DNA of 64,000 nt from a bacterium (GCA_016932575.1 JAFGCO010000063.1:5901-69900); one strand, 5' to 3'; positions 15,690 through 42,119 are shown, numbered from the stretch's first letter. Notes: generated by a model not told the origin, from the sequence alone. Numbers and translations: made by a program.

Positions 15690-15714
15690 ATCGTGAAATA
15701 AATGGGGGTGTCTG

Positions 15715-20918: not shown

Positions 20919-21530
20919 ATGACGCAATATTTTAAAATACACAATATCACTCCTCAGAATCGGCTAATTGAAAAAGCTGTGGATATTGTGCGTAACGGTG
21001 GTGTGATTGTATATCCAACAGATTCCACATATGCTTTAGGCTGTCATATGGAAGACAAGACTGCTTTACATCGCATCATCCGGATTCGCCATCTTGATGC
21101 AAAACATCATTTTACTCTGGTTTGCCGGGATTTATCTGAATTGTCAACATATGCCAGATTTGATACACCGGCGTATCGGTTTTTAAAATTTCATACACCG
21201 GGGCCCTATACGTTTATCCTTCCTGCAACCAGAGAAGTGCCAAGGCGATTGCTTCATCCCAAACAGAAAACCGTTGGCCTCAGGGTGCCTGATCATCCCA
21301 TTACTCATGCGCTGCTGGAATGTCTTAATGAACCCATGATGACTACCACACTGCTTCTTCCGGGAGAAGAGTATCCATTGAATGACGGAGAAATGATTCG
21401 GGACCGTTTGTTTCTGCAAGTTGATTTGGTGATTGACGGAGGGGCGTGCGGTACAGTACCGACAACACTTGTGGATCTTACAGGAGAAACTCCAATTCTG
21501 TTACGGGTAGGTAAGGGGGAGTTGGGATAA
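20919..21530 (+). CDS. yciO: Sua5/YciO/YrdC family protein (YciO-like)
   Basis: VYPTDSTYALGC, TPGPYTFIL, VGLRVPD, LRVGKG. Confidence 0.85.
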   Translation: MTQYFKIHNITPQNRLIEKAVDIVRNGGVIVYPTDSTYALGCHMEDKTALHRIIRIRHLDAKHHFTLVCRDLSELSTYARFDTPAYRFLKFHTPGPYTFILPATREVPRRLLHPKQKTVGLRVPDHPITHALLECLNEPMMTTTLLLPGEEYPLNDGEMIRDRLFLQVDLVIDGGACGTVPTTLVDLTGETPILLRVGKGELG

Positions 21531-21540
21531 AGGACCAGGA

Positions 21541-21690
21541 ATCGGAATTGAAGAATTGATATTGGTATTGGGGAAAGATGGTAATAGGGTAATTGGGTAA
21601 TAGAGTAATTGGATAATTGGGTAACAATATATTGAATAAGTCGTTGTGTCATTGAGTCTTAGAGTCAAAAGTGGAAGAGTAGACAAATAA
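21541..21690. repeat. Degenerate 7-8-nt tandem repeats
   Basis: ggtaatag-ggtaattg-ggtaatag-agtaattg-gataattg-ggtaac. Confidence 0.65.
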
Positions 21691-21763
21691 TCATAGAAAA
21701 AATTAATTCCTCATTTAAAGTAAATCAGCGGGATGTTGTTAACAATATTAAAGGATTGATTTT

Positions 21764-23173
21764 ATGAGACAGATTCTTGTCTGTTCGGCGATGAATCGTG
21801 CCATTCAGATGATTCGTGACAGTTTTAAAAAGCCGGACCGTGTGACGGCATTGAATGATTTTAAGGTGTGCCATGAAGCGTTAAATGAAAAAAGATACGA
21901 CTTTTTGTTTATTGATGCCGGATTTTTCTCTCCAGCAGAAAATATCAAAGGATATCAGGAACAGCTGAATCCCTTTTGGGAAAAAAATCCAACACTGGAA
22001 ATTGTTATTTTAACAACCAAGGAAACCATACGCCGTACTGTTCATCTTGTGAAAGCCGGTGCAAGCGATTACCTGACATTTCCTCTTGATCCTGTGGAAA
22101 TCCATTACGTCATGGATTCCATTTCACAAGATCTGCAAATTTACTCGGAAATCAAGTACCTCAGGGATCAGTTCTGGCACCGGGATTCTTACGCAATTCT
22201 GAAAACGAAAAATTCAAAAATGCAGGATGTTTTTGAGAAAGTAAGGGCTGTGGCACCTACTGAAAGCACAGTGCTTTTGCTGGGAGAAACCGGAACAGGA
22301 AAGGGCGTGATTGCAAACCTTATTCATCGGCACAGTCCACGCAGTGATAAGCAATTTATCCAGATTCATTGCGGTGCAATTTCAGATTCTATTTTGGAAA
22401 GCGAAATGTTTGGTCATGAGAAGGGTGCATTTACCGGAGCGACTCGTAGAAAACTGGGAAAGTTTGAAATAGCCAATGGGGGAACACTGTTTCTTGATGA
22501 AATCGGTACCATCTCTCCTAATATGCAGGTAAATTTGCTTCATGTATTGCAGGAACGGTCTTTTCAGCGCGTTGGCGGTGAATTGGATATCCATGTCAAT
22601 GTCCGCCTGATTGCTGCCACCAATTCTAATTTATATCAGTTGTCTCAGGAGGGACAGTTCCGTCAGGATCTGTATTTCAGGTTGAATGTCTTTCCGATCA
22701 TGATTCCGCCTCTTCGTGAGCGCAAGGAAGATATCCCTATTCTGGTTCGGACATTTTTGGATACCCTGAATCAGGCTTCTGCGAAAAAAGTAAGAGAGTG
22801 TGATCCGGCTGTATTCGAGGCCTTGCATAATTATAACTGGCCGGGTAATATTCGTGAACTTGAAAATGTGATTGAACGGGCTTTTGTTCTTGCCGAAAAA
22901 GATCATTTAACCGTAGAGTGCCTTCCTGCAGAACTGGCTATGGTTTCTGATCCAAATTCTGTTTTTTCCTTCCAGAATTCAGATACTTTGGAAAGTGCAA
23001 GAAACCGTGCTGTGCAACTGGTTGAGAAAGCTTATCTTACCGAGTTACTCACACGGTACCATGGGCGAATTAACCGATCTGCGTCCGCAGCCGGCATTGG
23101 CGTTCGGCAGCTTCATAAACTCATGACAAAGTATGGACTCGATAAATCTCAATTTAAAGAAATTCATTTTTAA
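21764..23173 (+). CDS. Sigma54-dependent activator (NtrC-like) with atypical receiver domain
   Basis: GETGTGK, ESEMFGHEKGAFTGA, LFLDEI, WPGNIREL, C-terminal HTH. Confidence 0.93.
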   Translation: MRQILVCSAMNRAIQMIRDSFKKPDRVTALNDFKVCHEALNEKRYDFLFIDAGFFSPAENIKGYQEQLNPFWEKNPTLEIVILTTKETIRRTVHLVKAGASDYLTFPLDPVEIHYVMDSISQDLQIYSEIKYLRDQFWHRDSYAILKTKNSKMQDVFEKVRAVAPTESTVLLLGETGTGKGVIANLIHRHSPRSDKQFIQIHCGAISDSILESEMFGHEKGAFTGATRRKLGKFEIANGGTLFLDEIGTISPNMQVNLLHVLQERSFQRVGGELDIHVNVRLIAATNSNLYQLSQEGQFRQDLYFRLNVFPIMIPPLRERKEDIPILVRTFLDTLNQASAKKVRECDPAVFEALHNYNWPGNIRELENVIERAFVLAEKDHLTVECLPAELAMVSDPNSVFSFQNSDTLESARNRAVQLVEKAYLTELLTRYHGRINRSASAAGIGVRQLHKLMTKYGLDKSQFKEIHF

Positions 23174-23183
23174 TCCATAATTC

Positions 23184-23386
23184 GGAACTAAAAGTTCCTG
23201 TTTAATAACAATCGGTCCTGCAAATTCCTTTTTTTTATTTCACATCATTTGATAATCTTATAATATCATAAATAACAAATAATTAAAACTATATCCATTT
23301 GTTAAATTTAAACAATTGTCCCCATATTTGAACTCAATATATATCAAGATTTTTCTTCCGTATTGAAATTCGGGCTTCAGAGTTCC
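23184..23386 (+). promoter_or_regulatory. Three candidate enhancer sites, GGAACT-N3-AGTTCC
   Basis: 23184-23198 ggaact-aaa-agttcc (perfect palindrome); 23214-23228 ggtcct-gca-aattcc; 23372-23386 gggctt-cag-agttcc. Each is preceded by 'tc'. Confidence 0.6.
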
Positions 23387-23444
23387 GGTCTGCGATTTTT
23401 TTATCAAGCGATATAATATCATTAAAATTAAGCAATTAAGATAT

Positions 23445-23460
23445 TTGGCATTTCTTTTGC
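23445..23460 (+). promoter_or_regulatory. Sigma54 -24/-12 promoter
   Basis: tTGGCAtttctTTTGC with GG-N10-GC spacing, just downstream of the activator gene. Confidence 0.8.
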
Positions 23461-23483
23461 CTTGATGTTTCTGTGAATCAATT

Positions 23484-23852
23484 ATGCACGGAAACGGAAT
23501 GTCAAAAGCCAAAGAGATTGTCCGTCTGACAGGTGTCATTACAGTCACGGAAAGTGATCGTAAAGGAAAACCTCTTGAGATTGGGATTGAGACCGATGAT
23601 TTTTTGACTTATGTGATCACCTGTAAGAGAAAAGGCCGGGAGCTGTTTAAACACATCTCAAAAAGAGTCTCGATCACCTGTAAGATTGAAGGTAAAAATT
23701 ATTTTGGAAACGCGCTGATTTCGGTTATCGACTATTTACTTTTAAAAGAAGGCAATTCTTCGGTATATCGAATGAATATCCAGGACAATCATATTAAAAA
23801 TCAAATAGAAAACAAAAAGGAGATGGATCATGAGAGAAAGAAACGCGTTTGA
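23484..23852 (+). CDS. Hypothetical small beta-rich (possibly OB-fold-like) protein
   Basis: First ORF after the sigma54 promoter; the start may be ATG 23499. Confidence 0.6.
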   Translation: MHGNGMSKAKEIVRLTGVITVTESDRKGKPLEIGIETDDFLTYVITCKRKGRELFKHISKRVSITCKIEGKNYFGNALISVIDYLLLKEGNSSVYRMNIQDNHIKNQIENKKEMDHERKKRV

Positions 23853-23988
23853 TGAAGATGAGGATTGGAATTCATCAAAGAGAAAAAAAAAGAATGTGCG
23901 GGATGACTGGGATGATAAGCATTGGGAAGAGGATGAATACGATCAGGAAGAGGATGATGAATGGGAAGACGCGCAGGAAGATTTTTAG
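23830..23988 (+). CDS. 52-aa Asp/Glu/Trp-rich peptide, absent from the ORF track
   Basis: RBS aaggag at 23817-23822; MRERNAFDEDEDWNSSKRKKKNVRDDWDDKHWEEDEYDQEEDDEWEDAQEDF, TAG at 23986. Confidence 0.7.
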   Translation: MRERNAFDEDEDWNSSKRKKKNVRDDWDDKHWEEDEYDQEEDDEWEDAQEDF

Positions 23989-24137
23989 TTTATCGCGGTG
24001 GGGGTTTTGAAATTCGCTGTATTTTCACCCATCCGGTATCAATGTAAAAAATATTATTGAATAATGATATTCTTTATTTTAATAGCGGGATATCAATAGA
24101 AAACACCTGATTGTTCAATGAAACACAGGAGAATTTG

Positions 24138-25208
24138 ATGAAAATCGCAGTGGCTTACAGCAGTAAAAAGGGCCTTATTCAGGAATACCGTAAACGAAAA
24201 CAAATTCAAAAAATACCCGGCGATGAATATTTTGCCGAAGGGGATTCCATTAAAACGATTCAGGCTGTGATAGAAACCCTTTTAAAGATGGGCCATCAGG
24301 CTGTGGGCATTGAGGCGGATAATAATGCTTTTCAGAAATTGTCTGCAGAAGAACCGGATCTTGTTCTGAATATATCTGAAGGATTGACCGGAGATTTTCG
24401 CGAGTCTTATATTCCAATGCTCTGCGAACGTCTGAATTTGCCTTATACCGGTTCGGATCCGCTGACACTTGGTTTATGTCTGAATAAAATGCGAACCAAG
24501 GAGATCCTGGGATTCTATCAAATCCCTACGCCTGCCTTTCAGGTGTTTTATTCTGATAATGCTATGGCAACAGAACATCTTATTTATCCGGTCATTGTCA
24601 AGCCCATTGCAGAGGGCAGCAGTAAAGGAATAAACAATCGATCCGTGGTGAATGATCCGACTGCAGCCAAGTCCGTCATTGCAGAAAAATTATTGAAGTA
24701 TGAACAGCCGGTGATCGTTGAATCCTTTTTGACAGGAGCCGAGTTTACAGTGGCACTTTGGGGCAACGGTGAAGAAGTTGAAGCCCTGCCCATTGTGGAA
24801 ATCTGTTTTGAGGAATTACCCGAAGGCGCCTGGCCCATGTATTCCTATGAAGCCAAATGGGTCTGGGATTCACCTGACAAGCCGCTTCAAATTTTTCAGT
24901 GTCCGGCAAAAATTGATGCGAAATTAAATCAGGAAATTGTCTCAGTAGCCAAACGCGCTTATTATATTTTGGGCATTCGGGACTGGTGTCGCATTGATAT
25001 CCGGCTCGACCAGGAAGGGGTTCCCAATATTCTCGAATTGAATCCATTGCCAGGCATTCTGCCGGACCCGAAAGAAAATTCCTGTTTTCCCAAATCTGCC
25101 CGAACTGCCGGATATTCGTATTCGGACATGATCGGGCGGCTCATTTCTATTGCCTGCCGACGTGTCGGCTTGATTGAGAATATCAATGCGCCTGTTTATC
25201 GTTCATAG
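24138..25208 (+). CDS. D-Ala-D-Ala ligase-like ATP-grasp enzyme 1
   Basis: PYTGSDP, VKPIAEGSSKG, YSYEAKW, RIDIR, LELNPLPG; non-canonical N-terminus. Confidence 0.88.
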   Translation: MKIAVAYSSKKGLIQEYRKRKQIQKIPGDEYFAEGDSIKTIQAVIETLLKMGHQAVGIEADNNAFQKLSAEEPDLVLNISEGLTGDFRESYIPMLCERLNLPYTGSDPLTLGLCLNKMRTKEILGFYQIPTPAFQVFYSDNAMATEHLIYPVIVKPIAEGSSKGINNRSVVNDPTAAKSVIAEKLLKYEQPVIVESFLTGAEFTVALWGNGEEVEALPIVEICFEELPEGAWPMYSYEAKWVWDSPDKPLQIFQCPAKIDAKLNQEIVSVAKRAYYILGIRDWCRIDIRLDQEGVPNILELNPLPGILPDPKENSCFPKSARTAGYSYSDMIGRLISIACRRVGLIENINAPVYRS

Positions 25209-26184
25209 TGCCCCGGAGGAATCCGGGACGGATGACGATCCCGACTTGATATCCTCGGTTGCGATTCTTGACCAGGCAAGGGCGGTTCATCAGGCTGCGA
25301 TTGAATTGGGTTATCAGTCCCGCTGTTATCCCGTCATTGAAATCACTGAAACCATCCATGACATTATTCATGCAAAACCGGATGTAATATTCAACCTCTG
25401 TGAAGAGTATCAGGGGAGGACCCGTTATGAGTTGAACATCGCCTCTCTGTGGGAACTTATAGGGATTCCTTATACGGGTAATCCTCCACTGACATTGGGA
25501 CTTGCCCAGGATAAAGTGATGACAAAACGTCTGCTCCAGGGCAAAAACATCCGGACTCCCGCCTATCAGGTTTTTAAATCTGTCCCTGAAAATGTAATGC
25601 TCGAGTTTCCTCTGATCGCCAAGCCATCCTGCGAAGATGCCAGCCTGGGGATCATCAGTACACGCGCAGTCAGTTATTCACTTTCTGAATTAAAGAAAAA
25701 TGTGGAAATTCTGCTCGAAAAATACCGTCAACCGATTCTGGTAGAACGGTATATTTCGGGACGTGAATTCAACATCAGTGTTTTTGGAATGCCGCCCAAA
25801 GTCCTGGCAGTCTCGGAGCTTGATTTTTCTGAACTTTCTGACACAGAAGCAAAAATCGCCAGTTATGAAGCGAAATGGATGCCGGATCATCCTGCTTATC
25901 AAAAAACACCGGTTCACTGTCCTGCTGATATTCCTGATGAGCTCAGAATCAAAATTGAAGATGTTGCTACTCAGGTTTTTACTTTACTGGGGGGGCGGGA
26001 TTACGGACGGGTGGATATGCGGATGGATCTGCAAGGAAGACTGTATGTGCTCGAATTTAATCCAAATCCGGACATATCACCGGATGCAGGATTCATCAAA
26101 GCGGTCCGGGCATCGGGATTATCCTATTCTGATTTTGTCGAAGAACTGATCCAGGTTGCTTTTCTCAGGGAGAAAAATGATTAG
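25186..26184 (+). CDS. D-Ala-D-Ala ligase-like ATP-grasp enzyme 2
   Basis: PYTGNPP, AKPSCEDASLG, SYEAKW, RVDMR, LEFNPNPD. Confidence 0.88.
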   Translation: MRLFIVHSAPEESGTDDDPDLISSVAILDQARAVHQAAIELGYQSRCYPVIEITETIHDIIHAKPDVIFNLCEEYQGRTRYELNIASLWELIGIPYTGNPPLTLGLAQDKVMTKRLLQGKNIRTPAYQVFKSVPENVMLEFPLIAKPSCEDASLGIISTRAVSYSLSELKKNVEILLEKYRQPILVERYISGREFNISVFGMPPKVLAVSELDFSELSDTEAKIASYEAKWMPDHPAYQKTPVHCPADIPDELRIKIEDVATQVFTLLGGRDYGRVDMRMDLQGRLYVLEFNPNPDISPDAGFIKAVRASGLSYSDFVEELIQVAFLREKND

Positions 26185-26662
26185 ATTACGGGACATACGG
26201 CCTGAAGACCGATTGCTGATTAAGCAGATGCTGAAATCCACCCGGCATTTTACGGGGACTGAAATAGAGACTGCACTTGAATTGGTTGATGCTTTTATTC
26301 AAAAGACAGATCTTAGCTATCAGTTCATTGTTGCTGAAAACACGGGAGGTGACTTTGTCGGATATGGATGCTGGGGTCAGGCGCCATTTACTTACGGAAC
26401 GTATAATATTTACTGGATAGCGGTTTCACCCGAAAGCCAGAAGAAAGGTGTGGGCAGCAAAATTCTATCTTACATGGAAACTCAAATTATGAATGCACAC
26501 GGGAGATTAATTTTAATCGAAACCTCTTCAAGTAAAGCGTACCGGGATGCCCGTGCTTTTTATGAAAAGAAGGGATATACAATGGAATCCCGGATTAGAG
26601 ATTTTTACAAGCCGAAAGACGACCGGTATATTTATGTTAAACGATTCGACGTTTTCTACTAG
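26177..26662 (+). CDS. GNAT N-acetyltransferase
   Basis: YWIAVSPESQKKGVG motif A; ARAFYEKKGY. Confidence 0.9.
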   Translation: MIRLRDIRPEDRLLIKQMLKSTRHFTGTEIETALELVDAFIQKTDLSYQFIVAENTGGDFVGYGCWGQAPFTYGTYNIYWIAVSPESQKKGVGSKILSYMETQIMNAHGRLILIETSSSKAYRDARAFYEKKGYTMESRIRDFYKPKDDRYIYVKRFDVFY

Positions 26663-26674
26663 GAGAATTAATCC

Positions 26675-27772
26675 ATGGAATCATGGCAATTGCAATTACG
26701 TCGTAGTCTTACTGAAGTAAAAGATCTTCCGGATCATTTCAATATGTCTGTGGAAGATTTGTTTGGTGTGACGCAGGTGTTCAGTATGAAAATTACACCC
26801 TATTATCTTTCTCTGATTCAAACTGTCGGAGATCCGCTGTTCAAGCAGGTGGTTCCGGATTGCCGCGAACTTGAGAATCATGGTCTGTATACGGATCCTT
26901 TATCAGAGGACCGAGATTCACCTGTTGCGAATATTGTCCATCGATATCCGGACCGATGTCTGTTTTTAATTTCCGCAGAATGTGCCAGTTACTGCAGGTT
27001 TTGTACGCGTAAGCGTAAGGTCGGGGATTCGAAAAAAATTAATCGGAATCTGATTCATGAAGGGATTCGTTACATTCGTGATCATTCGGAAATTCGAGAC
27101 GTGATTCTATCCGGAGGAGATCCGCTGATATTGTCGGATCAGCGGCTGGAAAGCATTCTGCGGGAAATTCGGGCGATTCCTCATGTGGAAATCATCCGTA
27201 TCGGATCGCGAGTCCCCTGTTTTCTGCCGCATCGCATCACGCCTGAAATGACGCAGATGCTGCGAAAGTACCATCCGTTATATATGAATGTGCACTTTAA
27301 TCATCCGGCTGAGCTCACTCCGTTGGCAATAGAAGCCCTGGGACGTCTGGCCGATGCGGGTATTCCCCTGGGCAATCAGACAGTTCTTTTAAAGGGTGTG
27401 AATGATAATCCTCAGGTCATGCGGCTTTTGATGCAGAAACTGCTCATGGCACGGGTACGTCCTTATTATATTTACCAGGCGGATATGGTGTTCGGCACTG
27501 AACATTTCAGAACCACAATCCGTAAAGGCCTTGATATTGTACGCGCACTGCGAGGATGGACGTCCGGGCTGGCTGTGCCTCATTATGTCATCGACGCACC
27601 GGGCGGAGGCGGAAAAATTCCTTTATTACCGGAATATGTCAAGAAAATAACGGATGATTCTGTGGTTCTTCGCAATTATCGTGGTAAAACATATGTTTAT
27701 AAGCAAACCGGGGATGTCTCTCAGCATCAGTTGTTGAATGAGGATGCTTGTTTTTTAAAAAGGGAGCAATAA
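26675..27772 (+). CDS. kamA: Lysine 2,3-aminomutase family radical SAM enzyme
   Basis: CASYCRFC, SGGDPL, YYIYQAD, IDAPGGGGKIP (PLP lysine). Confidence 0.9.
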   Translation: MESWQLQLRRSLTEVKDLPDHFNMSVEDLFGVTQVFSMKITPYYLSLIQTVGDPLFKQVVPDCRELENHGLYTDPLSEDRDSPVANIVHRYPDRCLFLISAECASYCRFCTRKRKVGDSKKINRNLIHEGIRYIRDHSEIRDVILSGGDPLILSDQRLESILREIRAIPHVEIIRIGSRVPCFLPHRITPEMTQMLRKYHPLYMNVHFNHPAELTPLAIEALGRLADAGIPLGNQTVLLKGVNDNPQVMRLLMQKLLMARVRPYYIYQADMVFGTEHFRTTIRKGLDIVRALRGWTSGLAVPHYVIDAPGGGGKIPLLPEYVKKITDDSVVLRNYRGKTYVYKQTGDVSQHQLLNEDACFLKREQ

Positions 27773-27967
27773 TAAATAGGCGGGTATTTCCATGTCTCTG
27801 GTTCTTTCAATATATATACAAAGAATCAATGATTTAAAGTTCGATGTTTTTACTTTTTTCTTGATTGTTGATTCAGGATTTTTTTATTTGACATTTCTCT
27901 GCATCTTACCGGTTAACCAAAGCACTTTTTTTAATTTTAATTCAATGATTTAACCGATTGTCATCCT

Positions 27968-29713
27968 ATGTTTCGAATCCGACGTATATACGATGATGCA
28001 TTGCCGGTGAACCGGGCCGCGATCAGTCAGGTTCAGGAGATCCTGAGAATTCAATTTCCATTGGTGAGTGAAAAAGAAGTTCGTCTATTGCCGGACAAAT
28101 TGCGGAATCCAATGAAACACGGATTTCGTGCAGTGCTTCTGGTCGCTGAGGATGGTCGGGGACGAGTCAAAGGATTTGCACTTCTTTATCATGAGCCTAT
28201 TCTCAGGTTTTGTTATCTTGATTATATTTCCTCGACCAGAAAACTGACAGGACACGGTATTGGCGGCGCATTATATGAACGGATTCGCCAGGAAGCCGCG
28301 TCTCTGGGTACGATAGGCCTTTTTTTTGAATGCCTGCCCGATGATCCCAGATTATGCGGGGATCCTGAGATATGCAGGCAGAATCGGGCACGTCTGAAAT
28401 TCTATGAACGATACGGAGCATATCCAATCGTTGGAACAAAGTATGAAACGCCGGTTCAGCCAGGTGATGATAATCCGCCCTATCTGATATATGATGCTTC
28501 AGGATACGGCAAACCCTTAAGAAAGCGGCATATCAGGCAAATTGTCCGCGCCATATTGGAACGTAAATATCATGATATTTGTCCCGTATCCTATATCGAT
28601 ATGGTCGTTAATTCGTTTCAGGATGATCCGGTTCGGATGAGGGAACCACGATATATTCGGATTCTGATGCCTTTGCCGGTGAAGGCAGAAATCACAGATG
28701 ACCGGAAGATATTACTTATCATAAGCGATGTTCATGAAAATCATTATATTCATGAGCGTGGATATGTGGAAGCACCGGTCCGTATAGGGGCGATTTTAAA
28801 GGGTATTGAATCCTCAGGATTATTTAAACAACAAAGAGCAGGACATTTCTCTGAATTTCATATTCGGGCGGTGCATCATCCGGGTTTTGTGGAATATCTG
28901 CGCCGGGTATGCCGTCATATTGAATCCGGGCAATCTGTATATCCGTATGTCTTTCCTTTGCGCAATCAGACCCGTCCGCCTGTGGATTTGCCGATTCGTG
29001 CGGGGTACTATTGCATGGATACATTCACTCCGATTCATAAGGATGCATTCCGCGTAGCCAAACGTGCTGTGGACTGCGCATTAACCGGGGCAAGGGCGCT
29101 TCTGGAAGGTTATCAGATTGCTTATGCTCTGGTACGCCCCCCCGGGCATCATGCGGAAAAAGCCGCATTTGGCGGATTCTGTTATTTTAATTCAAATGCG
29201 GTCGCTGCCAATTATCTCAGTGCGCATGGCAGAGTGGCTATTCTGGATATCGATTACCATCATGGCAACGGCCAGGAGGATATTTTTTATGAGCGTGCAG
29301 ATGTGCTTACTGTGTCCATTCACGGAAATCCGAAATTCGCGTTTCCTTATTTTACAGGATTCAGGGATTCCAGGGGGCTGGGATACGGAGATAAATTCAA
29401 TGTCAATTTTCCGCTTCCGGAAATAGTGGACGGTCAGGTATATCGAATCACTCTCGAAAAGGCCCTGCGAAGCGTGAGGCGATATAAGCCCGCTTTTCTT
29501 ATCATTGCTTTGGGGCTGGATACCAGTCAAGGGGATCCGACCGGCTCATGGTCGTTAAAAACATCAGATTTTGAGAAAAACGGAAAAATGATTGGCGACA
29601 TGAAGCTTCCGGTTCTTGTGGTCCAGGAAGGCGGATACAACACAAGGAAGCTTGGTGCGAATGCACGCGCGTTTTTTACCGGTCTCTGGAAAGGGATTTA
29701 CGGTTTTACCTGA
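27968..29713 (+). CDS. GNAT-like domain fused to HDAC/acetylpolyamine amidohydrolase domain
   Basis: N-terminal YLDYI...GHGIGGALY...FYERYG; C-terminal RPPGHHA, GGFCYFN, DIDYHHGNG, QEGGY. Confidence 0.9.
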   Translation: MFRIRRIYDDALPVNRAAISQVQEILRIQFPLVSEKEVRLLPDKLRNPMKHGFRAVLLVAEDGRGRVKGFALLYHEPILRFCYLDYISSTRKLTGHGIGGALYERIRQEAASLGTIGLFFECLPDDPRLCGDPEICRQNRARLKFYERYGAYPIVGTKYETPVQPGDDNPPYLIYDASGYGKPLRKRHIRQIVRAILERKYHDICPVSYIDMVVNSFQDDPVRMREPRYIRILMPLPVKAEITDDRKILLIISDVHENHYIHERGYVEAPVRIGAILKGIESSGLFKQQRAGHFSEFHIRAVHHPGFVEYLRRVCRHIESGQSVYPYVFPLRNQTRPPVDLPIRAGYYCMDTFTPIHKDAFRVAKRAVDCALTGARALLEGYQIAYALVRPPGHHAEKAAFGGFCYFNSNAVAANYLSAHGRVAILDIDYHHGNGQEDIFYERADVLTVSIHGNPKFAFPYFTGFRDSRGLGYGDKFNVNFPLPEIVDGQVYRITLEKALRSVRRYKPAFLIIALGLDTSQGDPTGSWSLKTSDFEKNGKMIGDMKLPVLVVQEGGYNTRKLGANARAFFTGLWKGIYGFT

Positions 29714-30649
29714 ATGAAATCAGAGACTGACAAGAAAATCCTGATTGCCGCAGATTGGGAATATGACACGGATTTTATCAGTTTTCTGGATGCATCTCTC
29801 CATGAATATTGTGTTCATTCGGCGGTTGTACGTGCAGACAATTTAACTTCAGTGATACGTGATATTCAATCCGGACAACTGAAGGTCCTGGCGCTGATTG
29901 ATCGTGCTTCTGATACGAATTCTGCATTTATTCAGCTTCAATCGCTTCTGCATGAAAATGGAGTTCCGATTATTGATCCTGTCGAACAGGTTCACTGGGT
30001 ATCGGACAAAGCGACAATGCATCTCGAATTCCTGGCTGCGGATATTCCCACACCGTATACATTGATCTTGCCTCCGTATGAGGAAAAGAACACACCTGCA
30101 TTGCATGTGGATGATCTGGCAATTCTTGGCCGGCCATTTGTGATTAAGCCGGCCAATACGACCGGAGGGGGGATTGGTGTGGTGGATGGTGCGGAATCCC
30201 TTCAGGAAGTTTTGCATGCGAGAACTGAATTCAGGTCGGATAAATATCTTATTCAGGAAAAGATAATACCAATTGAAAAAGAAGGGTATCGATTCTGGTT
30301 CCGGTCTTTTTATGCGGGAGGGCAAATTTTCTCAGCCTGGTGGCACGATGAAACGCACAGGTATATGGTGATTGATCATATGCTTATCGAACCGTTCGGA
30401 TTACATGCGATCTCACGAATTATGCGAAAAATTGCCAGGGTGGCAATGCTGACTCTTTTTTCAAGTGAGTTGGTCTGCTGTGCAGATGGCCGATGGGTTG
30501 TGGTTGATTATGTCAATGAATCCTGTGATATGCGTATTCAGTCAAAACATTGGGATGGTGTGCCGGACAACCTCGTAAAACAGATTGCTGCGGCAATTGC
30601 AAAACATGTGGTCTGTGTTTCACGGTCCAAGATTGATACACTTTCGTGA
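29714..30649 (+). CDS. Divergent ATP-grasp fold protein
   Basis: SDKATMH, IPTPYT, PFVIKPANTTGGGIGV, LIQEKI, VDYVNE. Confidence 0.75.
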   Translation: MKSETDKKILIAADWEYDTDFISFLDASLHEYCVHSAVVRADNLTSVIRDIQSGQLKVLALIDRASDTNSAFIQLQSLLHENGVPIIDPVEQVHWVSDKATMHLEFLAADIPTPYTLILPPYEEKNTPALHVDDLAILGRPFVIKPANTTGGGIGVVDGAESLQEVLHARTEFRSDKYLIQEKIIPIEKEGYRFWFRSFYAGGQIFSAWWHDETHRYMVIDHMLIEPFGLHAISRIMRKIARVAMLTLFSSELVCCADGRWVVVDYVNESCDMRIQSKHWDGVPDNLVKQIAAAIAKHVVCVSRSKIDTLS

Positions 30650-30713
30650 AAACGGCATGGGTGGATTATTATAATATTTTCTCTAACTTTTTTTGAATTA
30701 AAAACGGAGGTGC

Positions 30714-30920
30714 ATGATGAGTAAGATTAAAATCATTCTCATTTCGGTGATTGTTATTTTATCACTGATCATTATTCTGCAAAATATGAAGGCAGTTGAG
30801 ACAAAAATACTGTTTTTCACAATCATCATGCCGAGGATTGTGTTTTTGCTTTTCATGATGGGGGTCGGCTTTATTTTGGGAATTATTTATATGAAGAAGA
30901 AAGGGCAGATAACTGAATAA
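30714..30920 (+). CDS. Small membrane protein, LapA/DUF1049-like
   Basis: IIILQN...V...LF...MP between two hydrophobic helices. Confidence 0.7.
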   Translation: MMSKIKIILISVIVILSLIIILQNMKAVETKILFFTIIMPRIVFLLFMMGVGFILGIIYMKKKGQITE

Positions 30921-30927
30921 TACTGTA

Positions 30928-31851
30928 TTGCTCATTATCGGACTCGGTTTACTGATACTGGGAGCTGAGGCACTTGTGCGCGGCAGTTCAGCCCTGGCCC
31001 TTCATCTTGGCATGCGGCCTTTGCTGATCGGCATGACCGTGGTGGCCTTTGGGACCAGCATGCCAGAGATGGTCGTGAGTGTGCAAGCTGTATTCTCCGG
31101 ACAGGCAGGGATCGCGCTCGGCAATGTCATTGGCTCGAATATTTGCAATCTGGGATTGATCCTGGGATTGTCTGCTGTCATTCGTCCGCTTGCAGTTCAA
31201 TCTCAAACGATACGGCTGGATGTACCCGTGATGATTGTTAGTGCGATTATTTTGATTCTTTTTCTTTTTTCCTCGGGATTATCACGACTGGAAGGGATTG
31301 TTCAACTTGCATTCATGGGACTGTTTCTCGGATATTCGATTGTAAATGCAGGCAAGGATTGTATTCATATCCATTCTGCAGATCTGGGTGTGGGTGATAT
31401 CCGGCACTGGTCGTTCATCAGGATCATTTCATATATTCTCTGCGGTCTTGTCGGACTCATTCCGGGTGCACATTTATTGATTCGCGGTGCTGTCGGACTG
31501 GCTAGATCGTGGGGTGTTTCGGAAACTGTCATCGGATTGACGCTTGTGGCTGTGGGGACAAGTCTGCCGGAACTGGCGACTTCACTGCTGGCTGCATTTC
31601 GAAGAGAATCGGATATTGCGGTAGGTAATGTGATCGGATCCAATATTTTTAATACACTGGCAATACTTGGTGTGGCCTCAATCATTAAGCCGTTTCCAGA
31701 TTTGAATATATCATGGTCAAGTCTTGGAAGTATGCTGATACTTTCATTGTTATGCTTGCCTTTTTTTAAATCGGGATTTAGGTTAAGCCGTATCGAAGGA
31801 TTTATTTTAATTATCATTTACGGATTATATTCATTTATCATGTTTTATTGA
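30928..31851 (+). CDS. Calcium/sodium antiporter (YrbG-like, CaCA family)
   Basis: Two alpha repeats: GTSMPE...GNVIGSNI and GTSLPE...GNVIGSNI. Confidence 0.92.
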   Translation: MLIIGLGLLILGAEALVRGSSALALHLGMRPLLIGMTVVAFGTSMPEMVVSVQAVFSGQAGIALGNVIGSNICNLGLILGLSAVIRPLAVQSQTIRLDVPVMIVSAIILILFLFSSGLSRLEGIVQLAFMGLFLGYSIVNAGKDCIHIHSADLGVGDIRHWSFIRIISYILCGLVGLIPGAHLLIRGAVGLARSWGVSETVIGLTLVAVGTSLPELATSLLAAFRRESDIAVGNVIGSNIFNTLAILGVASIIKPFPDLNISWSSLGSMLILSLLCLPFFKSGFRLSRIEGFILIIIYGLYSFIMFY

Positions 31852-32207
31852 ATTTTTATACAAAAAAATATAACAGTATTATAATTTTTATTGCATAAAA
31901 TTCATTTGATTTATTATATTTATATAATTACATTTTTTCTTGTTTTTTACCTATACCCTACAGCCTAATATTCAGCGACCGACAGGGAGAACAGCAGAGG
32001 CTTATATCGGGATACCATGTGTGTCATTAGGTTATCTTATCAAGATAAAAATGTACTACCATCACCTTTTACCTGAAATTCCTTTTTATCTGCTGTTTTA
32101 ACATTTTTCCATATTTAGAATCAGGAAAACGCATAATTCGTTTTCAATGTGTTCTCCAGCCTTAGGGGAAGTGTTGTCGAATTTTGCATCAAGGATGGAA
32201 GAACCGA

Positions 32208-32888
32208 ATGATAGCGAATATATTGAATAACGTGCAGGATCAATACCCGAGACTGGCATTTGCCGAACAAGCGATTCATTCAGTAAAGGGAACCCTGTTT
32301 CCCCAGGAACAAGTTTTTATTCAAAATGCGGTTTTTAAAAGGCAGAGCGAATTTATTGCGGGGAGGATTCTTGCACGACAGGCAATGAAGCAATTGGGAT
32401 ATCCGGAATTTTCTCTGCCTGCAGACACTCAGCGTTGTCCGGTCTGGCCCGAGGATATTGTCGGTTCTATTTCACATACAGATCATTATTGCGGCGCCGT
32501 TGTCGGGGCCTCTTCACACTATCGAAGTATTGGTTTGGATATTGAACAGATCTCCAGGATAAATAAAGCGCTTTGGCCGGTCTTCTGCACCCGGAATGAA
32601 TTGAACAATTTATCCAAACTGCCAGTATTAAAACAACAAAAGCATGCTGCCCTTGTGTTCAGTGCCAAAGAAAGTTTTTATAAATGCCACTTTTATCTCC
32701 ACCGCGTTTTTTTTGTTTTTCAAGATATTGAAATTGCCTGGAATTGGAAGCGTTCACGATTTTATGTTTCTGTTCTCAATAAGGCTGTTCCTTTATTGCC
32801 TTTTAGTTGTCCGGTTGGATTTTTTACCCTGGCTCGGGATGAAGTATTTACTTTGACGATTCAAAAAACAAATATGACGACCTGTTAA
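32208..32888 (+). CDS. 4'-phosphopantetheinyl transferase (EntD/Sfp type)
   Basis: RQSEFIAGR, PVWP...GSISHT, IGLDIE, FSAKESFYK. Confidence 0.9.
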   Translation: MIANILNNVQDQYPRLAFAEQAIHSVKGTLFPQEQVFIQNAVFKRQSEFIAGRILARQAMKQLGYPEFSLPADTQRCPVWPEDIVGSISHTDHYCGAVVGASSHYRSIGLDIEQISRINKALWPVFCTRNELNNLSKLPVLKQQKHAALVFSAKESFYKCHFYLHRVFFVFQDIEIAWNWKRSRFYVSVLNKAVPLLPFSCPVGFFTLARDEVFTLTIQKTNMTTC

Positions 32889-32911
32889 TATCATTGGAGA
32901 AATAGAGTATA

Positions 32912-35900
32912 ATGAATTCTCAGTTAAAAATGTATCCGCTCACTCATGCGCAAAAACGCATTTGGTACGCTGAAAAAAAATATTCGGATTCGAATTTATG
33001 GAATATCATTTTTACACATGATTTTTTGGGTGCGGTTGATGTGGATTTAATGAGAAGGGCCATTATGACCTGTATCCGATCGAACGATGGCCTGCGTTTG
33101 CAGTTTAATGAAGCCAATGGAAATGTGCAGCAGTATGTCAGCGAGGTGGAACCGGAATGTATTGAAATATTTGAATTTGAGAATGAAGTCGAGAAGGATC
33201 TCTTTTTAAACAATCTTTCTGCCAAACCTTTCCATGTCATGGATTCGAATCTTTATTATTTTTGTATTTATAAAGTGAAGTTTCATATCGGTTTTTATAT
33301 GAAGCTGCATCATATTATCTGTGATGCCTGGACAGTTCGCCTCATTTGTGAACAAATCTGGGGCAATTATCAGCAATTTGTCACTGGTGAGTATCATACC
33401 GAATCCTATCCATCCTATATTGATTATTTGACCAGCGAAGCAAAATATTTACATTCACCGGTCATGGAAAAAAATCGCTGTTACTGGCTGGATCTGTTAA
33501 GAAATATGCCTGCCAGCCTCAAACTCAGTCGTCTAACCGTAAAAAAAGGAACTATCGATTCTCAGCGACTGAATTTTTACCTGTCTGAAGACATGACTGA
33601 TGCCATCCGTGATTTCTGTGCAGAACAGACTATGCAGCCTTTCCACTTTTTATTTTCAGCATTTCTTTGCTGTTTAAGTAAATGTTCCCTTCAGAAGGAG
33701 TTTGTGTTAGGGACTGTGGTACATAACAGAACCGGACGGAAAGAAAAAAAGACAGTGGGTATGTTTGTAAACACAGTACCCTTTCGTGCTTCGTTGAATG
33801 ATTTAAATTCATTTATTGACCTGGTTCAATCAGTCACAAAAAATATTAAAAGTCATTTGAGACATCAAAAATATCCTTTTGATTTATTATTGACGGATTT
33901 AAAAGACACCTACGGTTATTCCACAGACTGGATGGAAGTGGTGTTTTCTTATGACACCTTCACTCACCCTCTGCCCAATCAATGGCACGCGAATGACAAA
34001 GAAATTGTCCCTCTGGTGCTTCATGTGACAGAGCGGGAATCGAAGACCAAATTAAAGTTCGAATTTGATTTTCATACGGCGGTTTATTCTGAAAAGGAAG
34101 TATCCCGGATTTTCGAATTCATCAAAAATATTATCAGTGAAGTGATCAAAACACCTCAGATTCAATTGAGTGAAATTGAAATGATCAGCAAAGAAGAAAA
34201 GACATGCCTGCTGTCGCATTTTAATCATGAAACACGGCCTCTGGATGACTTTCAACCCATCCATCAGCTCATCTCGAAGCAGGTCAGATTAAATCCGGAT
34301 CAGAGAGCAATTGTCACTCACGATCAAGAGATCACATTCAGGGAATTGGATCAACGGGCGAATTGGATTGCAAACTCAATAAGGCAAAAGGGAATCGGTC
34401 CGGGAGATTGTGTGGGTTGCCTGTTCGATCGGTCTGTTGAATTGATTGTCACTTTACTGGGAATTATGAAGTCAGGAGCCGCATATGTGCCTATCGATCC
34501 CTCCTATCCTTCGGCACGCATTCTGCATATGATTAAAGCCAGCAGTATGACATGTCTTGTTACTGATGCAGGGCATCGCAATGCCATTGGATCCCGGGTT
34601 GAAATAATTGAATATCCCTCCGATCCCCAGTCGCAGATTCTTGCTTATTTTCAGGCGCATGAGCCGGATCCGCATGACTTATTATATGTTGTTTTTACGT
34701 CCGGCTCAACCGGAGAGCCCAAAGGCGTGATGGTCGAACACCTGGGATTTTTCAACCTTCTCAAAGTGCACCAGGAAACTTTCTGCACGGCTTCCAGCGA
34801 CCGGATGACTCAGGTTGCCAGTCCCGGATTCGATGCTATGGCATTTGAGATTTGGCCCTGTCTTTCAAGAGGAGCAACGTTGTATATTGTCCCGGATATC
34901 ATTCGAACGGATCCCTATTATTTAAAATCCTGGATGATTGATCACAAGATTACTTTCACTTATCAACCGACAGCTATCGCTGAGTTTTTAATTCATGAGG
35001 AGTGGCCCGACAAAACATATTTAAGATGCCTGACCACTGCAGGGGAGAGATTGAAGAAATATCCAAAATCCGAATTGCCATTTCGATTTTTCAATTTGTA
35101 CGGACCTACCGAGGATTCTGTTTGGACTTCGATTGCAGAAATTAAAACCGACAACAAACAATCTGAAAGATATCCTTCTATTGGAAATCCAATTATGAAT
35201 CATCAGATTTATATTACAGATCATGAATTACATTTACAACCCATTGGCATATCGGGCGAACTTTGTATTTCGGGCACCGGATTGGCTCGTGGATATATCA
35301 ACCGGTCCGAATTGACGGATGAACGTTTTATTTCCAATCCTTTCGAACCGGGAGCCCGTCTTTACAGGACGGGTGATTTGGCTTACAGGACATGGGATGG
35401 ATCCATTCAGTTTATCGGGCGGAAGGACAATCAGGTACAAATTCGCGGATTCCGTGTGGAATTGGGAGAAATTGAACATCATTTGCAGAATATGCCCGGT
35501 GTCCGCGATGCAGCCGTACTTGCAGATACAGATAAAAGAAAACAATCCCGGCTTTTGGCTTATCTTGTAGGAGATAATGCTTTGACCGAGCAGCACATCC
35601 GCCAGTATTTGCATCATCATTTGCCGGATTATATGATTCCAGCCTTCATTCGGCTGTTGGATGAACTGCCCAGAAACGAACATGGCAAATTGAATGTGCA
35701 AGCACTTCCGGCACCGGACAACAGACAAAAGAGCCGGCACATTGCTGCTCCGGAAAATAACATTCAACGTCACCTGGTATCCGCATTTAAAAAATATTTA
35801 GATGTCCCTGAGATCAGCATTCTGGATCATTATTTTGAATTGGGCGGGGATTCCATCAAAGCCATTCAAATCTCTTATGAAATGCAGAAACTGGGCTATG

Positions 35901-37402
35901 AAATGCATGTGGCTGACTTATATGAACATCCGACGATCGAGTCAATCAGCCGCAAGATCGTACACTTAAAGAAAACAATTCATAAGAAGCATAAGTATCA
36001 GGAAATTCCTCTGACTCCGATCCAATGCTGGTTTTTTCAACAGAATTTAAAAGATCAGCATCAATGGAATCAGACATTGACCCTTCGTTCAATCCGCCGT
36101 CTTCATCCCGAAATGGTACAAATCGTGATGATAGATCTGATTCGTCATCACCAGACACTGCAATATATTTATTATCAGGATCACAATAAATGGATTCAGG
36201 AATTATCCAAAGAAGGCCACCAGCTCTTTGATTATTTTTTTGAAGATCTCCGTTATACAGATGCTTATGTAGATCATATGCAGGTTCATGTCCATGAGTT
36301 ACAAAGAAGCATGAATATTAAAACAGGCCCTCTGGTAAAATTGGGACATTTTCGTACTTCAGACGGAGATTTGCTGGTTTTTATCATTCATCATCTTGCC
36401 GTGGATGGCATTTCATGGCGAATCCTTTTGGAGGATTTTATAGAAGGCTATGAGCATGAAATTCAAGGCTTGTATGATCAATATCGACTGCAGACATTGC
36501 CGTTCGCGGATTGGTCTCATCACTTAACGGATTACGCTAAAAATCCATTATTATTTAAGGAATTATCTTACTGGCAGGGCATCGGGTCGGCCCATTCGGC
36601 TGTGTTGAGTAAAGATCAAATTGTTGGATCCCGGCTGGCGAAAGATATGCTCACGAAAAAAATTATTCTATCAGAATCGGACACCGGGCAGCTTTTAAAA
36701 GAGGTTCATCGTGCCTTTCATACCAATGTCGAGGATATTTTACTGGCATGTCTTGGTTTATCTCTCTATAAATGGCAGGGAATTGAACAGATACGGTTGC
36801 ATTTGGAGGGTCACGGCAGGCACCCAACATTTACCGAACTCACAGTATCAAGAACCATTGGCTGGTTTACTTCCATATATCCGGTTCTACTATCAGTGAA
36901 AGAGCCGGATAATATCGCCTATCATATCAAATCCACAAAAGAAACACTTCGGCAGGTTCCAAATCATGGAATGGGTTACGGAATTCTGAATTATTTGACG
37001 CCATCTGACTTGAAACGCAACTGGCAAATAGTTAAAATACCAGAAATATGCTTTAATTATCTGGGTGAGCTGGATGCTTCTCTGAAGGACAATTCTCTTG
37101 ATTTATCTCTGGTGCTATTTGAGTTGTTCACAAGTCCCGAATCTGAAAAAAGGTACGCTTTGGAAGTCAACAGTATGGTGAGGAATGGTCAACTGGAGAT
37201 ATGGTTCGAATATCACAATCAGGAGTTCCGCGAAAAGAACATACAATATCTGACGGATATTTTTTATGACAACTTAATTCGAATGATTTGCTTTTGTCTG
37301 GATAAACACGAGACTGAGTGGACGCCCAGTGATTTTGGAGATGCCACACTGTCTATTGATGATCTTGATACAATCAATCAAATGATTGATTGTATTGAAT
37401 AG
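32912..37402 (+). CDS. NRPS module 1: C(starter)-A-T-E
   Basis: HHIICDA, FTSGSTGEPKG, YGPTE, LGGDSI, E-domain HHLAVDGISW and LEGHGR, COM donor TPSDF. Confidence 0.93.
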   Translation: MNSQLKMYPLTHAQKRIWYAEKKYSDSNLWNIIFTHDFLGAVDVDLMRRAIMTCIRSNDGLRLQFNEANGNVQQYVSEVEPECIEIFEFENEVEKDLFLNNLSAKPFHVMDSNLYYFCIYKVKFHIGFYMKLHHIICDAWTVRLICEQIWGNYQQFVTGEYHTESYPSYIDYLTSEAKYLHSPVMEKNRCYWLDLLRNMPASLKLSRLTVKKGTIDSQRLNFYLSEDMTDAIRDFCAEQTMQPFHFLFSAFLCCLSKCSLQKEFVLGTVVHNRTGRKEKKTVGMFVNTVPFRASLNDLNSFIDLVQSVTKNIKSHLRHQKYPFDLLLTDLKDTYGYSTDWMEVVFSYDTFTHPLPNQWHANDKEIVPLVLHVTERESKTKLKFEFDFHTAVYSEKEVSRIFEFIKNIISEVIKTPQIQLSEIEMISKEEKTCLLSHFNHETRPLDDFQPIHQLISKQVRLNPDQRAIVTHDQEITFRELDQRANWIANSIRQKGIGPGDCVGCLFDRSVELIVTLLGIMKSGAAYVPIDPSYPSARILHMIKASSMTCLVTDAGHRNAIGSRVEIIEYPSDPQSQILAYFQAHEPDPHDLLYVVFTSGSTGEPKGVMVEHLGFFNLLKVHQETFCTASSDRMTQVASPGFDAMAFEIWPCLSRGATLYIVPDIIRTDPYYLKSWMIDHKITFTYQPTAIAEFLIHEEWPDKTYLRCLTTAGERLKKYPKSELPFRFFNLYGPTEDSVWTSIAEIKTDNKQSERYPSIGNPIMNHQIYITDHELHLQPIGISGELCISGTGLARGYINRSELTDERFISNPFEPGARLYRTGDLAYRTWDGSIQFIGRKDNQVQIRGFRVELGEIEHHLQNMPGVRDAAVLADTDKRKQSRLLAYLVGDNALTEQHIRQYLHHHLPDYMIPAFIRLLDELPRNEHGKLNVQALPAPDNRQKSRHIAAPENNIQRHLVSAFKKYLDVPEISILDHYFELGGDSIKAIQISYEMQKLGYEMHVADLYEHPTIESISRKIVHLKKTIHKKHKYQEIPLTPIQCWFFQQNLKDQHQWNQTLTLRSIRRLHPEMVQIVMIDLIRHHQTLQYIYYQDHNKWIQELSKEGHQLFDYFFEDLRYTDAYVDHMQVHVHELQRSMNIKTGPLVKLGHFRTSDGDLLVFIIHHLAVDGISWRILLEDFIEGYEHEIQGLYDQYRLQTLPFADWSHHLTDYAKNPLLFKELSYWQGIGSAHSAVLSKDQIVGSRLAKDMLTKKIILSESDTGQLLKEVHRAFHTNVEDILLACLGLSLYKWQGIEQIRLHLEGHGRHPTFTELTVSRTIGWFTSIYPVLLSVKEPDNIAYHIKSTKETLRQVPNHGMGYGILNYLTPSDLKRNWQIVKIPEICFNYLGELDASLKDNSLDLSLVLFELFTSPESEKRYALEVNSMVRNGQLEIWFEYHNQEFREKNIQYLTDIFYDNLIRMICFCLDKHETEWTPSDFGDATLSIDDLDTINQMIDCIE

Positions 37403-37591
37403 AGAATGTTTGCACTTATATGATGCATCGTTTGGAAGACTAAAATCAAAGAAGTTAAATTCGGTCCTATCAATGATTGGCTTATCGGTTTATAAATGCA
37501 ACATTTTTATGCGGTCTTTTTTATTCGGAGAACTGATAATTTTCTGAGCTTTTTTGGTGATATCTGACAAATTATCTATATCAGGAATCAG

Positions 37592-41974: not shown

Positions 41975-42119
41975 TTTTTGTTCGTGTATGATAAAAATTC
42001 TCATCGTTATTGCATATTTGACTTGCAATTTTCAATAAATTTTATTAATAAATAAATAATATTATCGATCTTCCTTGATCAGCATAGCAATTTTAAATCA
42101 TCATCGGAAGGAGGGGAAG

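Follow-up and report, generated by a model that had tools for sequence, protein, structure and literature searches.

Among described systems, AblA and AblB comprise a lysine 2,3-aminomutase and a beta-lysine N-acetyltransferase, which together yield N-epsilon-acetyl-beta-lysine. Ngg, which unites GNAT and ATP-grasp functions, takes part in the synthesis of N-acetylglutaminylglutamine amide, and LysX (with LysW) and RimK are ATP-grasp ligases whose substrate is the C-terminal end of a small acidic protein. To our knowledge, beta-lysine has few established fates, namely the N-acetyl-beta-lysine osmolyte, EF-P modification, lysine fermentation and some antibiotics. Here we describe a bacterial gene cassette that would add another such fate, in at least nine named bacterial lineages among the loci fetched. 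The cassette was analysed in a window of 64,000 nucleotides (GCA_016932575.1 JAFGCO010000063.1:5901-69900; positions are counted from the window's first letter), and its core encodes two ATP-grasp ligases that resemble D-alanine--D-alanine ligase (Ddl), a small GNAT acetyltransferase and a short KamA-type aminomutase. We lean, if only slightly, towards reading the locus as a sigma-54-dependent operon that would make a small amide or peptide from beta-lysine, which may resemble a polyamine and whose acetylation could be switched. The genes from the first ligase onward are as follows.

24138..25208, + strand: Ddl-like ATP-grasp ligase 1 (PF07478, E 5.4e-36)
25186..26184, + strand: Ddl-like ATP-grasp ligase 2 (PF07478, E 9.4e-29)
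26177..26662, + strand: small GNAT acetyltransferase (PF13508, E 1.6e-13)
26675..27772, + strand: KamA, short-form lysine-type 2,3-aminomutase (TIGR00238, 297 bits)
27968..29713, + strand: GNAT::HDAC fusion (PF00850, E 1.1e-71)
29714..30649, + strand: third ATP-grasp ligase, divergent, RimK/glutathione-synthetase-like (weak matches, none in Pfam)
30714..30920, + strand: hydrophobic membrane open reading frame (ORF) of 68 amino acids, weakly LapA-like (PF06305, E 1.8e-4)
30928..31851, + strand: Ca2+/Na+ antiporter (PF01699, E 9e-66; TIGR00367)

A scan for ligase 1 across genomes yielded 345 confirmed stretches, of which the best 80 loci were analysed (hereafter the wider loci). Sixty-six of these are informative, in that they carry at least 3.7 kb of DNA after the ligase-1 start. 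The genes for ligase 1, ligase 2, the GNAT and KamA are co-oriented within 5.5 kb in 60 of the 66 informative loci, and the remaining six are without one or more core parts. This arrangement is far beyond chance, and these four genes alone constitute the universal core. Record titles place the loci in Calditrichaceae, Victivallales/Lentisphaerae, Marinimicrobia, Aminicenantes/Acidobacteriota and KSB1, and further in Ignavibacteriota, Bacteroidota, Chlorobiaceae, Geobacteraceae, Desulfuromonas and Planctomycetota. Because the recurrent annotated flanks are mostly housekeeping genes that vary by clade (V-type ATPase subunits, RecG, DnaG, rpoA and ribosomal protein genes, HtrA-type protease), the four core genes form a self-contained module. 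Within the fetched set, the third ATP-grasp, the antiporter and the sigma-54 regulator were encountered again only among loci of this lineage and its close relatives.

An earlier note on this DNA (the original prediction) had listed these genes as one pathway and expected them to be co-conserved. All of them were found on the plus strand, with Pfam or NCBIfam matches backing the families of most, and the neighbourhood survey upholds co-conservation for the four-gene core. The full gene set is not general, since the third ATP-grasp and the antiporter are lineage-restricted. The gene called LapA-like does match PF06305, but at 21.8 bits, under the Pfam gathering cut-off of 28. Across 151 genomes of the window's phylum, a ligase-1 orthologue (E<=1e-60) is present in 48, and families mostly have it in nearly all of their members or in nearly none. 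The unpublished genomes G087 and G144 are among those counted, and G144 also enters the count of spermidine-synthase-like genes given below.

KamA is the sole dedicated precursor enzyme of the cassette, which leaves common metabolites, or beta-lysine itself, as the partners in the ligations. The protein exceeds the cut-off of TIGR00238 (199.2 bits), scores 472.9 bits with the AblA model TIGR03820, under the cut-off of 525.4, and matches the solved Clostridium lysine 2,3-aminomutase 2A5H with an E value of 6.5e-113. R134, D293, D330 and K337 of 2A5H are all kept, with the motifs YQAD and VIDAP aligning to D293 and D330, and the 4Fe-4S motif CxxxCxxC provides the equivalents of C125, C129 and C132. 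We take D293 and D330 to be the Asp pair that binds the epsilon-amino group, and the roles of the other 2A5H residues are assumed likewise. Judged by these residues, the enzyme is lysine-type rather than glutamate-type, as had been proposed from the same two Asp residues, and it would convert L-lysine to beta-lysine. With 365 amino acids, it is without the Cys-rich C-terminal tail present in AblA of the same genome. All three KamA paralogues of this genome keep both lysine-type Asp residues.

The two cassette ligases belong to the same fold family as DdlB and VanA and have the catalytic residues in common with them, but differ at Tyr216, His63, Ser150 and Ser281/Leu282, in the N-terminal motif and in the omega loop, and have no cell-wall context. 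Residues were read from alignments to E. coli DdlB (1iov) and to 4zqi, and DdlB numbering is used. K144, K215, R255, D257, E270 and N272 of DdlB are retained in both ligases, together with the ATP-, Mg- and transition-state-binding residues of Ddl. The D-Ala pocket of Ddl presumably comprises the E15 motif, H63, S150, Y216, S281 and L282. Both ligases carry YEAKW, which places Trp at Y216, and all 28 sequences compared in each ligase family have this Trp; the original prediction had noticed YEAKW where Ddl has YEAKY, and the true Ddl of this genome carries YNAKY at the loop (within YDYNAKY). The true Ddl also keeps GGRSPEHDVS, whereas the corresponding N-terminal Ddl motif, GGxSxEhxVS, is replaced in both ligases.

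Further pocket positions are altered in each ligase separately. In ligase 1, H63 is replaced by Glu (E81) and L282 by Cys, with W241 and E81 invariant (28/28 sequences), and insertions occur in the omega loop and in the loop ahead of S281. A carboxylate at the His63 position would suit a cationic side chain. In ligase 2, S150 is replaced by Ala and S281/L282 by Ala/Gly, and its NLCEG motif may be the counterpart of the ligase 1 Glu at the H63 position. Because catalytic residues are kept and pocket positions are altered, both ligases look catalytically competent, with substrate pockets that appear to have been re-made. Each would form one amide bond via an acyl-phosphate, with substrates that we infer.

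Ddl is the nearest family to both ligases in Pfam and NCBIfam, and public annotations agree, naming their relatives D-alanine--D-alanine ligase. These assignments favour a cell-wall function, with D-Ala-D-Ala or a variant depsipeptide as the product, which we nevertheless consider extremely unlikely. The best Ddl model gives 181.7 bits for ligase 1, and ligase 2 reaches 132.1 bits, each against a cut-off of 243, and both proteins miss every Ddl cut-off. The pocket residues are altered as described above, and the ligases are invariably linked to KamA and the GNAT. In addition, a true Ddl (429 bits, over the cut-off) is encoded elsewhere in the genome, on another contig, beside lptD and gatB. 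Ligases 1 and 2 are 37% identical to each other, whereas each is 26-27% identical to this true Ddl. The scores, the identities and the separate contig of the true Ddl all accord with the earlier placement of the ligases outside a cell-wall role. A quick maximum-likelihood tree gathers the ligase 1 sequences into a single group (SH-aLRT 86) and those of ligase 2 into another (SH-aLRT 99), and the two groups show mirrored internal branching. We therefore read ligases 1 and 2 as an old paralogue pair that has travelled together.

The genome also encodes canonical AblA (784 bits) and AblB (327.6 bits) on contig C24, with a Na/solute symporter, and EpmA/GenX on contig C16 (340 bits, over the cut-off). 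Since a true Ddl, AblA/AblB and EpmA are all present separately, the cassette is unlikely to serve cell-wall, N-acetyl-beta-lysine osmolyte or EF-P chemistry. The genome is thus a natural control that narrows the cassette's possible purpose. Like AblA/AblB, the cassette combines a lysine-type KamA enzyme and a GNAT in one predicted operon; however, its KamA is short and below the AblA cut-off, its GNAT is not AblB, and the cassette has a deacetylase and two to three ATP-grasp ligases besides. The idea of an extended AblAB pathway, put forward in the original prediction, is misleading in this respect, because the small GNAT has no TIGR03827 (AblB) match among its family matches at E<=0.01 and the canonical AblA/AblB pair resides elsewhere. 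Its idea of a protein tag fares no better as far as EF-P is concerned, as that role is already covered by the separate EpmA gene.

Two further observations concern these separate systems. On C24 (30500-43500; L114 3301-8687), the symporter gene lies between ablA and ablB and a sigma-54 activator gene is located upstream; the AblA/AblB system of this genome may also be under sigma-54 control. A third, short KamA is encoded on C6 (L115 5425-8722), where its gene overlaps an unassigned ORF of 170 amino acids, followed by a PtsN-like IIA gene and a K+/H+ antiporter-like gene. This KamA may be the EpmB partner of the C16 EpmA.

The best solved relative of the small GNAT is 2r7h (E 1e-31 over 149 residues), a structural-genomics entry titled 'putative D-alanine N-acetyltransferase of GNAT family'. 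This title probably derives from Ddl-like gene neighbours, and the source organism of 2r7h, probably a Desulfovibrio, is a possible experimental entry point. Six natural Ddl2-GNAT fusion proteins were found. The small GNAT, fused to ligase 2 in such organisms, would acetylate one amino group.

The HDAC half of the GNAT::HDAC fusion matches PF00850 at 242 bits (cut-off 27.9). Its closest solved relatives are four acetylpolyamine amidohydrolase (APAH) sequences, 6phr (E 3.9e-63) followed by 9gkz, 3men and 3q9b, whereas E values for the bacterial HDAH structures (1zz0 and its relatives) are no better than ~4e-33. The alignment to 6phr reveals that the HH, DxH, D and EGGY motifs are kept, which we take to be the tandem His, the zinc ligands (Asp-x-His and Asp) and the catalytic Tyr. 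Proximity to the APAH structures suggests that the HDAC half is of the acetylpolyamine-amidohydrolase type, and it may be active on acetylated polyamines. The zinc and catalytic motifs are common to this protein and to APAH (6phr, 3men and 3q9b), but the cassette protein is fused to a GNAT-like domain of ~260 amino acids and is linked to a beta-lysine cassette, not to polyamine genes. The acetylation/deacetylation pair that had been proposed for this locus is present, with the HDAC catalytic motifs intact. The fusion would remove or re-position the acetyl group, and would thereby deprotect the product or switch its charge.

The fusion belongs to a highly conserved family of ~580 amino acids that is 62-64% identical across records named Dehalococcoidales, Syntrophales and Deferrisomatales. 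Full-length homologues are present in 12 of 41 related genomes, and the gene adjoins KamA, the Ddl-like genes and the GNAT in eight of the 11 same-order loci fetched. For its N-terminal domain, no solved relative was found. We also considered the small GNAT as a paralogue of this N-terminal domain, a candidate that was rejected because the two have no similarity.

The third ligase gene abuts the fusion gene (0 nucleotides between them). In searches with the LysX, RimK and Ddl models, its product gives E values of ~6e-6, with ~25 bits versus cut-offs of 143-276, and comparison with the RimK structure 5i47 gives E 0.008. The profile alignment is weak and in register, and an Atlas language-model lead points to RimK/GSH-S clusters (0.96). 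The protein is best described as a probable RimK-like, clade-specific ATP-grasp for which the family model cut-offs are not reached. Its original assignment as a third ATP-grasp thus keeps faint LysX/RimK/Ddl support but gains no Pfam match. A profile search returned 501 cluster representatives of this family at E<=1e-3, among which some relatives are fused to an M3 oligopeptidase and some to a GNAT. A triple fusion of the third ligase with GNAT::HDAC was considered and rejected, the 908-aa relative in question being fused to an M3 peptidase instead. Homologues of the third ligase are adjacent to the cassette in four of the 11 same-order loci and present in five of the 80 wider loci. In this lineage the enzyme may add one more residue to the product, a step that we infer.

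Taken in order, the enzymes of the cassette would yield a small beta-lysine-containing amide or short peptide. Beta-lysine carries two amines, and the product would therefore probably be cationic and polyamine-like unless acetylated. Ngg provides a precedent in which an acetyltransferase and an ATP-grasp enzyme yield an N-acetylated dipeptide, and the Ddl2-GNAT and third-ligase-GNAT fusions mirror its architecture. The cassette differs from Ngg in that its ATP-grasp enzymes are of other subfamilies, it adds an aminomutase, a second ligase and a deacetylase, and it is without an amidotransferase.

The Ngg precedent also suggests a different product, a compatible solute for salt stress, which would be an N-acetylated beta-lysine dipeptide built by the logic of N-acetylglutaminylglutamine amide, with the antiporter in the same response. 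We regard this as possible but rather improbable. KamA plus a GNAT is a known osmolyte pair, as the names of TIGR03820 and TIGR03827 indicate, Ddl2-GNAT fusions occur, and the source sequencing run of the window is labelled sediment metagenome. The Ca2+/Na+ antiporter (TIGR00367, 246 bits versus a cut-off of 180) is possibly the last gene of the operon, and homologues stand in the same gene string in L013, L024 and L036. However, an antiporter homologue is beside the cassette in just two of the 80 wider loci, and a canonical AblA/AblB system with its symporter is already present in this genome. Judging by record titles, the cassette is also found amid housekeeping genes in bins from groundwater, in one named Victivallis vadensis and in bioreactor-type Aminicenantes. 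Victivallis vadensis is a gut bacterium. Finally, it is hard to see what a deacetylase of the polyamine type would do for a neutral solute.

The beta-lysine amide reading includes regulation by a sigma-54 switch, for which the relevant features lie upstream of ligase 1.

21764..23173, + strand: sigma-54 enhancer-binding protein, NtrC-type (PF00158, E 1.5e-67; AAA_lid_14)
23183..23386, + strand: three CGG..N..TTCC palindrome-like sites, candidate upstream activator sites (loose-pattern search)
23446..23460, + strand: putative sigma-54-type promoter, TGGCAT-N5-TTGC (motif search)
23484..23852, + strand: 122-aa ORF (no Pfam or NCBIfam match)
23830..23988, + strand: 52-aa acidic ORF (46% Asp plus Glu, four Trp, AGGAG before the start)

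The promoter-like sequence TGGCAT-N5-TTGC is located 24 nucleotides ahead of the first ORF. The pattern TGGCAY-N5-TTGC has this one match on both strands of the 64-kb window, where 0.37 would be expected. Among 18 loci, the exact sigma-54 motif gave only two strict matches; reading of the intergenic regions revealed a variant, TGGCA[CT]-N5-TTG[CA], at the equivalent place in four relatives. Likewise, three of the 13 window matches to the loose CGG..TTCC pattern fall in one 200-bp stretch, 60-260 nucleotides upstream, and TCGGAA..TTCCGA-like palindromes were seen by eye in the same intergenic region of loci L013, L014, L016 and L017. The locus combines GG/GC elements at -24/-12 spacing with an adjacent activator gene, and rpoN is present in the genome. 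The adjacent enhancer-binding protein likely regulates the operon and would switch the whole set on through the -24/-12 promoter. Its receiver domain is weak (Response_reg, 26.5 bits, under the cut-off), and a homologue stands beside the cassette in four of the 11 same-order loci and five of the 80 wider loci. A sigma-54 promoter with its own activator would offer an experimental handle for inducing the pathway. As a separate observation, loci of the Calditrichaceae type carry a PAS histidine kinase gene ahead of the sigma-54 activator gene, and none is next to the activator in the window.

From the 122-aa ORF to the antiporter, successive genes are separated by -23, +149, -23, -8, +12, +195, 0, +64 and +7 nucleotides. 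They form two tight, co-oriented blocks, one running from ligase 1 through ligase 2 and the GNAT to KamA and the other from the GNAT::HDAC fusion and the third ligase onward. Between the promoter and the antiporter, the intergenic gaps contain no terminator-like site on the plus strand, and no riboswitch or leader RNA was matched in Rfam at E<=1 within 21000-33000.

The first of the two small ORFs, which begins at the start position of the region in the original prediction but was left unnamed there, has only unnamed clusters of ~100 amino acids as relatives in the Atlas. Homologues of 83-94 amino acids occupy the same place in L013, L014 and L017, with one in L016 recognised by eye; none was detected in the 80 wider loci (tblastn). 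The 52-aa acidic ORF overlaps the end of the 122-aa ORF and has a homologue of the same length in the closest relative (L013:16148-16306, minus strand; 27 of 52 residues identical). A composition filter found none in the other 87 loci (1/88 scanned outside the window). The acidic protein could be a carrier-like or counter-ion partner. In L013, a 509-aa ORF that appears PAS/sensor-kinase-like by eye (14592-16121, minus strand) lies between the acidic ORF and ligase 1.

These small proteins invite comparison with LysX-LysW and RimK-S6. It could be proposed that the cassette ligases modify a protein or peptide, for example by beta-lysylating or extending the end of the small proteins at the operon head, although we judge this unlikely. 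Two small ORFs do head the operon, the acidic one is kept in the closest relative, the third ligase is faintly similar to LysX and RimK, and one of its relatives is fused to an M3 oligopeptidase. In contrast to the substrates of those systems, the acidic ORF has Phe, not Glu, as its last residue, is without zinc-ribbon cysteines and was found in two genomes only. Because the small ORFs are missing from the large majority of cassette loci, they cannot be the core substrate. Moreover, the core ligases are Ddl-type, a group whose known members join small molecules, and beta-lysylation of EF-P has its own EpmA here.

Several findings weigh against the preferred reading of a sigma-54-dependent operon for an acetylation-switched beta-lysine amide. 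The -12 element is TTGA, not the canonical TTGC, in four of the five genomes compared, and the 195-nucleotide gap between the two gene blocks leaves a single transcript as a prediction. The GNAT::HDAC gene is solitary amid unrelated genes in three of the 11 loci (L021-L023, one of which is a 5.8-kb contig), and it also occurs in two genomes where no ligase-1 orthologue was found. An acetyltransferase-like domain fused to a deacetylase has no clear logic, and the GNAT signal of that domain is weak (E ~1e-3). Each chemical step of the proposed pathway is drawn from homology. In addition, complementarity with polyamine synthesis follows no pattern, as PF01564 (spermidine-synthase-like) is matched in 126 of the 151 genomes, with or without the cassette, mostly by partial matches inside long ORFs, and nspC is found in 0 of 151.

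A bolder version of the preferred reading would make the product an as yet undescribed beta-lysine-based oligoamide, used by many anaerobes as a polyamine-like cation whose charge would be toggled by the acetylase and the APAH-type deacetylase. In this lineage the system would have acquired a sigma-54 two-component switch, a RimK-like ligase and the 52-aa acidic protein as carrier or counter-ion. We offer this version only tentatively and hold it to be doubtful.

No paper on the cassette was found in full-text searching, the coverage of which stops short of supplements and subscription journals. What the present window would add comprises a single genome with three separate systems related to beta-lysine or Ddl, together with the APAH assignment, the putative sigma-54 switch, the third ligase and the two leading ORFs. 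The identity of the product would assign a function to relatives annotated 'D-alanine--D-alanine ligase' or 'histone deacetylase family protein', which number at least 6,179 and at least 7,736 cluster representatives, respectively.

The genes that follow the antiporter raise one more possible fate for beta-lysine. A stretch on the plus strand (32184-44300) encodes an Sfp-type phosphopantetheinyl transferase (PPTase), a two-module non-ribosomal peptide synthetase (NRPS) and then a TonB-dependent receptor. The NRPS layout is C-A-T plus a condensation/epimerisation-like domain, followed by C-A-reductase. Beta-lysine occurs in some nonribosomal antibiotics, and the PPTase-NRPS genes (32184-41974) begin 332 nucleotides downstream of the antiporter on the same strand, with the NRPS ending in a reductase and the receptor gene beyond it. 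The cassette might accordingly be imagined to feed beta-lysine or a beta-lysyl dipeptide to this cluster, but we find this very improbable, since almost every other genome has the cassette on its own and no PPTase or NRPS homologue was detected in the 11 same-order and 80 wider loci (tblastn). Given this lack of a counterpart in related loci, the NRPS genes are treated as a separate cluster, which may make a small dipeptide-aldehyde or a siderophore-like compound. On the other side of the cassette, at 15715-19281 on the plus strand, the window encodes a protein of 1188 amino acids that contains numerous WD40 repeats and ends in a caspase (Peptidase_C14) domain.

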